9,378 nt of DNA from a virus (taxonomy: Duplodnaviria; Heunggongvirae; Uroviricota; Caudoviricetes): IMG/VR virus record IMGVR_UViG_2711768069_000012. One strand, 5' to 3'. Made by a program: the position numbers. Positions 6,001 through 9,378 of the stretch are shown here, piece after piece. Numbering within the stretch: position 1 is the stretch's first letter; each line of letters starts with the position of its first letter.

Positions 6001-9000
6001 TTGCAATATTTAATGCAAAGGAATCAAGTTCTAAGCCCTTAAGCGTAACACAGCCGCAGTTGATAAAATTAGTTGTTTCTGGAGTTGCTTTTAGTGTCTT
6101 CATATATCCGCCAACAATTTTAAATTGAATCAAATCAAGTTATAATTGATGGTGCGATATTATGTTTTGGGAAACAGGCTGTCAAGAAAAAATTGATATC
6201 GTATATTTCAGGCAGAAAAAAAACGGGCAAAGCCCGTTAAAATCAAAGACTAACCAAATCTGTTTATGTTGAATGGTACTGATGAGATCACTTTAGACTG
6301 GATATAAAGCAGAGCTAACCCCTCTTTTTCGATGCTCCATGGTTGATAATTGGGGTTATCAGATAACACCATGATTTTGCTTCCAATTTTTTGAAGCCTT
6401 TTCACGTAGCATTCTCCATCAAAACAAAATGCATAAATACCATCGCCATCAAAATAAGTTACTGTCTTATCAAGAAAAAGAAGGTCGCCAGGTGAGATTG
6501 TGGGAGCCATACTGTCTCCTCTGGCGTTACCTATTTCTATATTTTTGAATGCCCGATTTCCAACAAGACGTCGGGCATATTCAGGATCAAGTTCTATTGA
6601 GCGCACTACATCTATCAAGTCACCACGGACATGAGTTCCATCACCGCAACTAAACTCAACATCAAGGACATTAAATACGACGCTATCTGTTCTTGTCTGG
6701 TGTTTCTCTTGCGAAGAAAAGGTTGGTGAGGAGTCTTCACCTAAGAACCAGGATTGTGGATAACCGCTAATCTCTGATAAATGCGCGAGCTTATCACTCC
6801 GTGGAAATGTTTTTCCTGTTGTCCAGTACTGCACTGATTGCGCACTCACACCTAACTTGCGGGCCAGTTGAGCCTGAGTCCATCCTTTTGCTTTCAGCAT
6901 CGCGGCTATTCGATTTTCCGTGTTTTTGACGTTCTTCATGACCAAATCCTGTGGGTTTCTTTACAAGGATAAATCTTTACTTGATTTTAGTGTATTCGAT
7001 CCTTTTGCAACTTGCATGTTAATTTAAACTTGATGTATTCTTGATTTATAAAGTTAATATTGGTGCTTTGTTATGGAAGGAAATGATTACGACAAACTTC
7101 GTGCATTAATTGCGCAAAATGCCATAGCGCGAAATCTTGGTGTGACGCCGCAAGCGGTGAATCAGTGGTTTTCAAAAAGCACAATTCCTGCTCGTTTCGT
7201 TTTACGAGTATGTGAAGTAGTTGCATGGAAGGTTACGCCTCATGGCTTAAGGCCAGATCTTTATCCTCACCCTGAAGATGGAATTCCTAACTTGTTACGC
7301 AAAAGCCTAAATCCAAGTTCACCACACAGAGCGGATGGAATACACGCAGGAGATAAACAATGAACACCGCAATTTTTAACGGCAAAGCATCCATGACCAG
7401 CGTTGAGATCGCAGAGCTGGTGGGAAGCCGACCAGATAGTGTTAAGAGAACTATTGAAACACTGGCTAAAAAGGGAATCATCCAATTTCCACAGACTGTG
7501 GAAATTGAGAATAAACAATCACTTGGGCCTCGCCGATTTTCTAGCGCGTATGTATTCGAAGGTGAACGAGGTAAGCGCGACAGCATCATTGTCGTCGCAC
7601 AGCTCTGTCCTGAATTCACTGCTCGCCTGGTAGATCGCTGGCGCGAACTGGAAGAACAGATCCGTAAGCCAATGAGCGAAATCGAAATGGTTGCCGCGAT
7701 GGCTCTTGAAGCAGTTCGTCAGCAGAAACGGATCACTCAGGTGGAAGAAAAAGTCAGCCACGTTGCTGAAACAGTCGAGCAAATTAAAAAGGGCACTATT
7801 CGTGAGGGCTATGCCGGATATCGCCAACTGAAAGCAAAAACCGGTTTGTCAGATGATAAATGCCGCAATCTGGTGAACGCCTATCAGATTCCTACAGACA
7901 CCCATGAGTTCATGACGCCGGACGGATTGTTGTCACGTCGCGCAATTGTTGCTGTGGAACCGTTTATGGCTGCTTTTTATCGGGTTATGGAGGAAGCAGA
8001 ACCGCGAGGGACTCGCTGGTATCACCCGAAAATGGGGTTATTTCAGGTTATTGGTTGGCAGCGGTGAAAAAAAGCCGGGAGTAACCCGGCTCACTCAACA
8101 TCAATAACGGGGAGCTGTTTCGCATAAAACGGCTCCGAAACATCCAAGAACAGTTCTAAAGATATCAGCAGCTATATGATCATTTCAAGACCAAATATTG
8201 ATTCTGCAATTTCGGGACGTTACACTGTCTCCGCACCTTATAAAGCGGGTGCCGGGGGTCGCAGCCCGGAATTGTCAACGGCGATATATGACGCGCCAGC
8301 GTCTTTTTTATCGTCCGCGCTCACGCACGCCAGAATTATGGTGGGCTGGGCAGGGGAGCCGAAAGGCTCGCCGGTCTCCGTTGACGCCGGTACTGCGAAC
8401 CCTGTTCAGTCTGCCACCAGTGAGTTTCGCAGCTCCGGTGGTGGAAGTTTTCCACAGTCAACGGAGGCTGCCTTAATGGCTACGATCCCCGCACATCCAT
8501 ACCTCAAAATCGAGGTCGTCAACGGCAGAGCCGTTATATTCTCCCTGTATGTCGCCTGTCACTTTAAGCGCATGCATAAGAATATCATCGATCGAATCGA
8601 ATATCTCAACTGCTCACGCGAATTTCTCACCCGCAACTTTATTCCCGGCACTTATCGCGCCTATGGCGATTCAGTGCGTGGTTATTACATCACCCGTGAT
8701 GGTCTGATGATGCTGCAGCTTGGGTTAAGTCTGCGCACCATGCGGTACTACGAGAGCTGCATTGAAGCATTCCATGAGGCTGAAGCCGTCCAGGTGCATT
8801 CCGTTTTACGCCGTAATCAACGGGAGGTGCATCCATGATTCGCCACCAGCATATTGATTCTGGAATTCCGGGACGTTACACTGTTCAGGCACCTTATAAA
8901 GCGGGTGCCGGGATTGGCGTCCTGAAATTCGCACATGCGCATAACCGCGCTTCAGCGGTTTTTTTGCGCACGTTTCCTCACATCCAAATTATGGTGGGGC

Positions 9001-9378
9001 GTGCAGGGGCATCGCAAGATGCGCCGGGATCATGTGCGACCGGTTACGCCAACCCTGTACGTCTCACCACCTCTGTGATTGGCGTCCCATGTGGTGAGTT
9101 TTCAAAATTCGCACATGAGGATGTCACTATGGCAACCACCCCTACCCAAACTCACCCTGAAATCACGATTATCAATGGTCGTGTTGTCACCACATCTCTT
9201 GCAGTTTCTAATTACTTTACTAAACGGCATGAGCGGGTTTTAGATAGAATTCGAAACCTCGAATGTTCCGCTGAATTTACTGAACACAATTTTGTGTTAA
9301 GTGTAAGCGTCGTCTCAGCACCGTCTGGCAGATCCTGAAATTCCTGAGAGAATAGTGGACACCAAATATGGTGGACGC

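Follow-up and report, generated by a model that had tools for sequence, protein, structure and literature searches.

Are the long leaders that precede certain Rha-type phage genes coding sequence, as their current annotation implies, or do they give rise to RNAs that decide whether the gene behind them is translated? And, if the latter is the case, how would two such leaders work side by side in the same prophage? These questions are raised by a 9,378-nucleotide (nt) stretch of viral DNA (IMG/VR record IMGVR_UViG_2711768069_000012), called here the window, to the whole of which all coordinates refer. Just downstream of its cI/cro region lie two tandem cassettes, each with a leader in front of a gene of the Rha family (Rha-1 in cassette 1 and Rha-2 in cassette 2). 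A sequence-only reading of the locus had proposed that the leaders contain a functional RNA of the P1 c4 or Salmonella IsrK kind, possibly as a distinct variant, and had suggested a search with the covariance models of the C4 and IsrK families. The scan of the whole window against the Rfam models (with gathering scores of 50 bits for isrK, 45 for C4 and 46.7 for c4-a1b1) gave four matches above the gathering score, one isrK and one C4 in each cassette, all of full length and on the plus strand, with E-values from 1e-11 to 1e-15. The functional RNA of known type was therefore upheld, whereas the distinct variant was not: judged by these models, the leaders are regular full-length members of RF01394 (isrK) and RF01695 (C4), and the two tandem units can be described as isrK-C4-Rha cassettes.

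Composition of the two leaders

All features of the cassettes lie on the plus strand. As read from the sequence, each cassette opens with a promoter, formed in cassette 1 by a -35 box TTGATT (8198-8203), a 17-nt spacer and a -10 box TACACT (8221-8226), and in cassette 2 by the same boxes at 8854-8859 and 8877-8882, beginning there 16 nt past the stop codon of Rha-1. Both promoters, which look σ70-type and are presumably active, end 6 nt upstream of the 5' end of an isrK RNA of 77 nt (copy 1, 8233-8309, 58.7 bits; copy 2, 8889-8965, 62.3 bits; model positions 1-77 in both). Copy 1 is composed of a first hairpin (8233-8252), a second hairpin whose loop carries the site a1, TCGCAG (8259-8264), a single-stranded 8-nt site b1, GTCAACGG (8274-8281), and an intrinsic terminator (8290-8303 plus U6). 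The corresponding elements of copy 2 are a1, TTGGCGT, in the loop of hairpin 2 (8914-8920), the 9-nt b1, TCGCACATG (8929-8937), and an intrinsic terminator with a different stem (8943-8960 plus T7). A terminator scan of the window returned five sites, against 1.3 expected in shuffled sequences, and the promoter and terminator motifs sit where the layout of the isrK family requires them.

The second RNA of each leader is a C4 antisense RNA of 88 nt (copy 1, 8334-8421, 78.8 bits; copy 2, 8987-9074, 75.9 bits; model positions 1-87). Copy 1 is closed by a 17-base-pair stem and presents a first hairpin GAGCC-GAAA-GGCUC (8356-8369), a second hairpin with the loop b', CUCCGUUGAC (8376-8385), and a junction a', CUGCGAA (8393-8399); copy 2 has GCAUC-GCAA-GAUGC (9009-9022), the loop b', UCAUGUGCGA (9030-9039), and the junction a', ACGCCAA (9046-9052). 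Members of the C4 family are expected to be cut from a longer precursor, by RNase P at the 5' end, to an RNA of about 77 nt; the copies in the window have the 3' region that this would call for, reading ...CCACCA in cassette 1 and ...CCACCU in cassette 2. Both leaders fold far better than their dinucleotide shuffles (z = -6.3 for cassette 1 and -4.8 for cassette 2), and the cassettes repeat with a period of 656 nt between the isrK starts (8233 and 8889) and of 653 nt for the C4 and gene starts. Each C4 also includes a conserved AUG (8338-8340 and 8991-8993), placed 138 nt upstream of the Rha start and in frame with it without an intervening stop, so that its use would be expected to lengthen Rha at the N-terminus and not to yield a peptide of its own.

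Several of these elements had been noticed in the sequence-only reading outside their family context. The block shared by the two cassettes (8198-8256 and 8854-8912, identical at 53 of 59 positions) comprises the promoter and the first isrK hairpin; the two intrinsic terminators with unlike stems are among the sites returned by the scan; the RNA of about 77 nt that was predicted to end at them coincides with the 77-nt isrK model matches; and the two GNRA hairpins are hairpin 1 of the two full-length C4 matches. Not recognised there were C4 as a whole, the match of its segments to isrK and to the ribosome-binding site, and the insertion sequence that interrupts Rha-2 at 9303.

C4-type RNAs are defined by the complementarity of two of their unpaired segments to sites on their own transcript, and this is found in both cassettes. 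In cassette 1, the junction a' is the exact 7-nt complement of a2, TTCGCAG (8426-8432), and the loop b' the exact 10-nt complement of b2, GTCAACGGAG (8457-8466), which overlaps the Shine-Dalgarno sequence GGAGG (8463-8467), 8 nt ahead of the ATG at 8476. The same holds for cassette 2, with an exact 7-nt match of a' to a2, TTGGCGT (9079-9085), and an exact 10-nt match of b' to b2, TCGCACATGA (9109-9118), overlapping the Shine-Dalgarno sequence GAGGA (9117-9121), 7 nt ahead of the ATG at 9129. A second copy of the sites is held by the isrK of each cassette, where b' and b1 match over 8-9 nt and a' and a1 over 6-7 nt. When the whole leader of cassette 1 is folded, the predicted minimum-energy structure has b' paired with b2 in cis, thereby burying the Shine-Dalgarno sequence. 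Since the a and b sequences differ between the cassettes, the C4 of each should control its own Rha only; in other words, the two cassettes would be built alike and addressed differently, and the switches should not cross-talk. Cross-talk was considered as a possibility and rejected, the non-cognate C4/target combinations in the window giving only matches of 6-7 nt, none of them in the a/b register. One 7-nt cross-match, between C4 copy 2 (9035-9041) and isrK copy 1 (8257-8263), falls inside the non-cognate background.

RNA genes under a protein name

The leaders could instead be protein-coding, the open reading frames (ORFs) 8176-8838 and 8835-9338 specifying 'Ash'-Rha fusion proteins. Some 100 codons ahead of the Rha domain are indeed open in both ORFs, the Pfam family PF10554 (Phage_ASH) matches them with 60.8 and 54.8 bits at a cutoff of 26 (its type of reading frame covering 8176-8475 and 8835-9128), the PHROGs include fused families of this kind, and RefSeq/PGAP labels the relatives in E. 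coli 'ash family protein' or 'Rha family phage regulatory protein'. In publications, PF10554 has been treated as a protein domain of unknown function (PMC8951638) and employed as a marker of P4 epsilon (PMC8628076). Nevertheless, the layout of the cassettes is at odds with a coding role, as each ORF begins ahead of the promoter, outside the repeat, and runs across an intrinsic terminator.

If the leaders are RNA genes, their relatives should conserve structure and not codons. Related loci were gathered with an RNA-based instead of a protein-based pattern, because open frames should not be favoured, and 103 distinct units were obtained from viral contigs. The pattern fixed TTATGG.GG, GGGG and GCCGG, so that invariance at these positions carries no information, and the sample, from which a few false positives were filtered, is biased to enterobacterial C4 of the same subtype. 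The promoter arrangement of the window, TTGATT-17-TACACT, recurs in 42 related units, and a looser TTGnnn-16..18-TAnnnT occupies the promoter position in 84 of 100. Across 65 distinct homologues, double-sided changes were found in 13 of the 27 consensus pairs of C4, with 0-3 broken cells per pair. In isrK, 9 of the 10 hairpin pairs are compensatory. This agrees with the sequence-only reading in placing the conservation at the level of structure and not at that of codons.

The frame data point in the same direction. In a set of 86 homologous units, the AUG inside C4 stands between 124 and 184 nt from the gene start, spread over the three phases (55/17/14); the 'Ash' frame continues into the gene in 45 of them, whereas in 30 it ends ahead of the gene start or close to it. 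The codon-position entropy of the leader (34.9/33.1/30.1) has no third-position excess; its positive control, taken from the 240 nt past the start, was uninformative (87/77/94), as the cargo genes within a class are not all homologous, and the periodicity argument rests therefore on the missing leader signal together with the frame data. Between the two leader copies of the window, 7 codon differences are synonymous and 46 non-synonymous (the excess of non-synonymous changes had been remarked upon before), versus 15 and 31 in the coding parts of Rha. On the grounds of frame conservation, indel phase, codon-position entropy and the ratio of synonymous to non-synonymous changes, the protein reading of the leaders was rejected.

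The question is settled by the origin of the family, given that the match of PF10554 in phage P4 (L123) falls on the obsolete ORF of a 'cI gene product' (8168-8584) and overlies there a C4-family match (8420-8507) that corresponds to the CI RNA. The genuine derepression protein of P4, epsilon, belongs to PF25738 and not to PF10554. In its passages on P4, PMC4825925 presents cI as long established to be an RNA, and the Gifsy-1 study, as summarised in PMC12197685, had remarked that orf45 is conserved in its nucleotides but not in its amino acids. Thus, it appears that both the Phage_ASH family and the RefSeq name taken from it are based on translations of isrK-C4 RNA genes; that the leaders of the window encode fusion proteins is highly improbable, and the Phage_ASH annotation, together with its use as a P4 epsilon marker (PMC8628076), is worth correcting.

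A probable RNA switch and its varied addresses

In the collection of 103 units, the pairing of a', scored on a fixed 11-nt junction segment, extends with a2 over at least 7 nt in every one of them (103/103), and that of b' with b2 over 8.4 nt on average, while non-cognate pairings in the same sample reach means of 4.5 nt (a) and 5.1 nt (b). There are 18 junction (a) types and 33 loop (b) types, seen in 51 combinations, and a1/a'/a2 as well as b1/b'/b2 change together in every type. A Shine-Dalgarno-like core lies within b2 in 38 of 44 types, and, of the 51 types, 36 have a b site at the target that exceeds the decoy site of isrK in length, as against 2 with a shorter one (p=2e-7). A close view of such a change is offered by E. 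coli 09-02E, whose cassette 1 is virtually identical to that of the window in its RNA part (one base differs upstream of isrK), and whose cassette 2 bears yet another a/b set, the third, with matching changes in isrK, in C4 and at the target. An additional element, containing GGUGG, is situated between a2 and b2 (8437-8444 and 9091-9098 in the window; about 34107-34114 in Gifsy-1, L124) and has the potential to base-pair with the 3' strand of the stem that closes C4. Of the 51 specificity types, 36 have this element; its match averages 5.2 nt, versus 3.6 nt in shuffled spacers, and it may be the counterpart of an alternative helix in the 'structure B' of Gifsy-1.

The analysis shows to which families the RNAs belong, how they are structured and that their complementarity is cognate-specific. 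Each cassette is, in all likelihood, a self-contained RNA switch of the P1 c4 / P4 CI / Gifsy-1 IsrK type that gates the translation of Rha. A constitutive-looking promoter would start transcription at isrK, and most transcripts would end at the isrK terminator and yield the 77-nt isrK, while those that read through would also contain C4, the a2/b2 target and Rha. Whether acting in cis or after excision from the transcript (which has been shown for P1 and P4), C4 would pair a' with a2 and b' with b2. Since b2 overlaps the Shine-Dalgarno sequence, Rha would not be translated while C4 is paired; if P1 and P4 are a guide, a message left untranslated in this way would be liable to termination by Rho. 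As isrK carries slightly shorter copies of both sites, a1 and b1, it would behave as a competitor, or decoy, for C4, and its accumulation would pull C4 off the ribosome-binding site, after which Rha would be made. We infer the processing of C4, the decoy role of isrK and its threshold, the Rho polarity, and the action of the Rha proteins as antirepressors or induction regulators in the phage of the window.

Some observations weigh against a switch that works in this way, most of them coming from the comparison with the isrK locus of Gifsy-1, where the cargo gene is anrP and STnc1160 takes the place of C4. The authors of the Gifsy-1 work ascribe the activation mainly to orf45, whose translation begins at the C4 AUG and is coupled to that of anrP, and they found that STnc1160, when over-expressed together with isrK, raised toxicity, unlike what a simple decoy would do (PMC4825925). 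In the window, the AUG that would start orf45 (8338, 8991) is in frame with Rha and no stop follows, so the coupling model of Gifsy-1 cannot apply as described. Moreover, Rha-1 has no significant similarity to AnrP (E=0.17), which is an ORF6N protein.

A different way to read the same arrangement is that control is exerted mainly by transcription attenuation, with C4 binding the nascent a1/b1 sites and enforcing termination at or after the isrK terminator, isrK being then a by-product. It is favoured by the position of b1 (8274-8281), only 8 nt upstream of the terminator stem (8290), and by the homologous seqA-CI arrangement of P4, the immunity of which has been described as premature termination by the CI RNA (PMC4825925). 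The IsrK paper itself raises attenuation for STnc1160 and reports that isrK supplied in trans increases the transcription of anrP 8-fold beside a 139-fold increase of its translation (PMC4825925). On the other hand, this translational effect far exceeds the transcriptional one, and the coverage of the Shine-Dalgarno sequence by b2 in 38 of 44 specificity types, together with the systematically longer downstream sites, indicates the ribosome-binding site as the primary target. Attenuation as the main mode is for these reasons unlikely, although it may coexist with the translational switch favoured here.

Regarding the signal that would set the switch, the sequence-only reading had envisaged SOS induction, and here it was not followed by the data: a search for LexA boxes (CTGT-N8-ACAG, allowing one mismatch) found nothing near either promoter, and LexA-box-like sites are no more numerous in the window than expected by chance. 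SOS control was consequently rejected, there being no LexA-box-like site near either cassette. According to PMC4825925, IsrK is induced in stationary phase and at low Mg2+.

The genes that stand behind these leaders vary. Over 89 units, the cargo is most commonly a Rha protein (35), followed by ORF6N (24) and Bro-N (7) proteins and several small proteins. Rha-1 (8476-8838, 120 amino acids) consists of the Rha-type (winged-helix) N-terminal domain only, without the C-terminal half present in relatives of 185 amino acids. Its 220-amino-acid ORF (8176-8838) scores 33.6 bits on Phage_pRha (PF09669; cutoff 29.9); Rha-1 reaches 40.1 bits on TIGR02681, under the cutoff of 45.95, and matches PHROG 995 (E=3e-52) better than the anti-repressor PHROGs. 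Rha-2 is represented by the first 58 codons of a Rha-family gene (9129-9302; PHROG 821, E=1e-28); this fragment gives 24 bits on the Rha domain model, and an intact relative from E. coli (185 amino acids) gives 100.7 on TIGR02681. The cause of the truncation is, going by the sequence, an IS66-family element (ISEc22-like), itself no part of the switch, that cuts Rha-2 after codon 58 and leaves the cargo of cassette 2 dead in the window. The left end of the element, which starts with GTAAGCGTCGTCTCAGC, covers 9303-9378 on the plus strand; these 76 nt also flank the IS66 tnpA/tnpB/transposase genes at many unrelated sites in E. coli, and in the alignment with E. coli 09-02E the window is collinear up to 9303 and diverges beyond. 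It is due to this insertion that the ORF 8835-9338 ends in sequence derived from the element. A putative target duplication at 9295-9302, TGTTAAGT, resembles TGTTAACC, the target of another copy of the element.

Are the cassettes, then, decaying and functionless remnants of a tandem duplication in a defective prophage? The interrupted Rha-2 and the Rha-1 short of its C-terminal half would fit such an idea, which is nonetheless quite improbable, more so than attenuation as the main mode. The RNA elements, the promoters, the terminators and the Shine-Dalgarno/target pairings are intact in both cassettes, and the tandem form with two units is kept in 73-82 complete E. coli genomes. Rha proteins of 120 amino acids recur at the 656-nt period in independent arrays, the E. 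coli relatives among them. One of these arrays, L029 (IMGVR_UViG_2671181028_000005), has on its minus strand three tandem isrK-C4-Rha cassettes, with C4 at 1545, 2201 and 2857, a period of 656 nt, a Rha of 120-121 amino acids in each, and a and b determinants that are all different; another, L078, has two units, the first with a Rha of 120 amino acids and the second with one of 187. Finally, Rha-1 and Rha-2 are only 36% identical, so the array is no recent duplication and must be either old or assembled from diverged modules.

Within one array, the b loops always differ. From this, together with the other properties of the arrays, a more general picture may be drawn, in which tandem isrK-C4-Rha arrays would be multi-channel switches that take orthogonal (a, b) addresses from a freely recombining pool and use their weaker decoys to set thresholds; we put it forward tentatively, as an idea that is possible but has less than an even chance of being right. 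If it is true, several antirepressor-type genes per prophage, and many co-resident prophages per cell, could be gated independently. To our knowledge, such a combinatorial orthogonal organisation is undescribed beyond the P1/P7 pair.

The prophage and its known counterparts

The window represents the left arm and the immunity region of a lambdoid prophage that is integrated in the host gene mlrA (yehV), an integration site used by Shiga toxin (Stx)-type lambdoid phages. On the minus strand follow one another the 3' part of this host regulator gene (78-656), the phage integrase (731-2017) and the excisionase (2051-2305). The early-left region of the prophage, on the same strand, contains a gene with an SPFH/Band-7 domain (2909-3736), which may have an accessory or exclusion function, and, after it, a DUF5406 gene (2497-2940). 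The immunity region is formed by a CI-type repressor with an S24 peptidase domain (6250-6945, minus strand) and a Cro/YdaS-like gene (7073-7363). Directly 3' of the latter, on the plus strand, there is a third gene of the Rha/Ant kind (7360-8067; PHROG 63 'anti-repressor Ant', E=3e-46) that has no isrK/C4 leader, which makes three Rha-type genes in a row, of which only two would be RNA-gated. It is followed by a strong GC hairpin, GCCGGG-AGTAA-CCCGGC (8072-8092); on the plus strand a run of A comes before this hairpin, which scores as an intrinsic terminator for the minus strand only.

Matches to these RNA switches occur in 371 phage records, about 200 of them Stx-converting. The relevance of the finding lies in that isrK/C4 switches are located beside cI/cro in many Stx-converting and other lambdoid prophages of E. 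coli, annotated there as 'Ash' domains (PMC8951638); once they are recognised as isrK/C4 RNAs, antirepressor-driven induction of such phages can be approached by experiment.

Being known from P1, P4 and Gifsy-1, the system brings little gain for the basic mechanism, and what is of interest is that two units with distinct pairing specificities stand in tandem, that the addresses form a combinatorial pool, and that these RNAs have been misannotated as a protein family. In P1, the c4 RNA is embedded in the transcript that it controls, its downstream site pair lies at the ribosome-binding site, and a few bases set the heteroimmunity between P1 and P7. The immI operon of both phages is said, in work attributed to Citron and Schuster (1990, 1992), to follow the order a1 b1 - c4 - a2 b2 - icd - ant1/ant2. 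The cassettes share with it the embedded antisense RNA, the a'/b' segments with upstream and downstream site pairs, and a cargo of antirepressor type. However, they differ in that an icd-like small ORF is absent, a2/b2 being directly at the Shine-Dalgarno sequence of Rha, in that the upstream sites belong to a separately terminated isrK, and in that the prophage is lambdoid instead of a plasmid.

The satellite P4 (seqA - CI RNA/seqB - seqC) has the same order as the window, its seqA scoring as isrK (60.8 bits) and its CI RNA as C4 (74.9 bits), and its region, too, was once annotated as a protein, the 'cI gene product'. According to the P4 passages of PMC4825925, this RNA is the primary immunity factor of the satellite and controls its replication genes, whereas the window has a conventional CI/Cro pair, and the RNA would control accessory Rha genes. 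The c4-a1b1 family RF03163 (Weinberg et al. 2010, PMC2864571) describes the two hairpins in the 5' half of isrK, with a1 in one of the loops, and aligns with 8220-8272 and 8876-8928. Its matches in the window score 18.5 and 21.6 bits, far under the gathering score of 46.7, and the copies are hence not members by the RF03163 model; Gifsy-1, in contrast, passes with 48.1 bits, and the sequence of hairpin 1 differs in the window (GCACC...GGGUGC).

The closest comparison is that with the isrK-STnc1160(C4)-orf45-anrP locus of Gifsy-1 in Salmonella. Some isrK transcripts read there through the terminator into a translationally silent mRNA, the processed RNA STnc1160 is located downstream of isrK, the short isrK activates the translation of anrP in trans, 139-fold, and isrK is regarded as a structural homologue of P4 seqA (PMC4825925, Hershko-Shalev et al. 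2016). The binding of isrK to Hfq and the trans activation of cargo translation have been shown for Gifsy-1 alone (PMC4825925). The differences concern the cargo, which is a Rha-domain protein in the window and the ORF6N protein AnrP in Gifsy-1; the location, which adjoins cI/cro in the former, with two tandem units, and is downstream of the Q antiterminator in the latter; and orf45, which does not exist as a separate frame in the window, where the C4 AUG precedes Rha by 138 nt in the same frame, while that of Gifsy-1 precedes its cargo gene by 134 nt in another frame, which overlaps the cargo start in AUGA. Despite this, both loci have in common the two Rfam families, their order and their spacing, with promoter, isrK and terminator, then C4 and then the gene, and b2 of Gifsy-1 adjoins the Shine-Dalgarno sequence of anrP. 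When the published numbering of Gifsy-1 is mapped onto the sequence, A107 corresponds to the AUG in the UUAUGG of C4, the a1 loop takes in G28 and G31, and the a' junction C159 and C162. The compensatory mutants G28A/C162U and G31A/C159U (PMC4825925 Table 1D) lie therefore in a1 and a', so that the a1:a' pairing is proven in Gifsy-1, and the a-type proven there by these mutants, UUGGCGU/ACGCCAA, is the same that cassette 2 carries.

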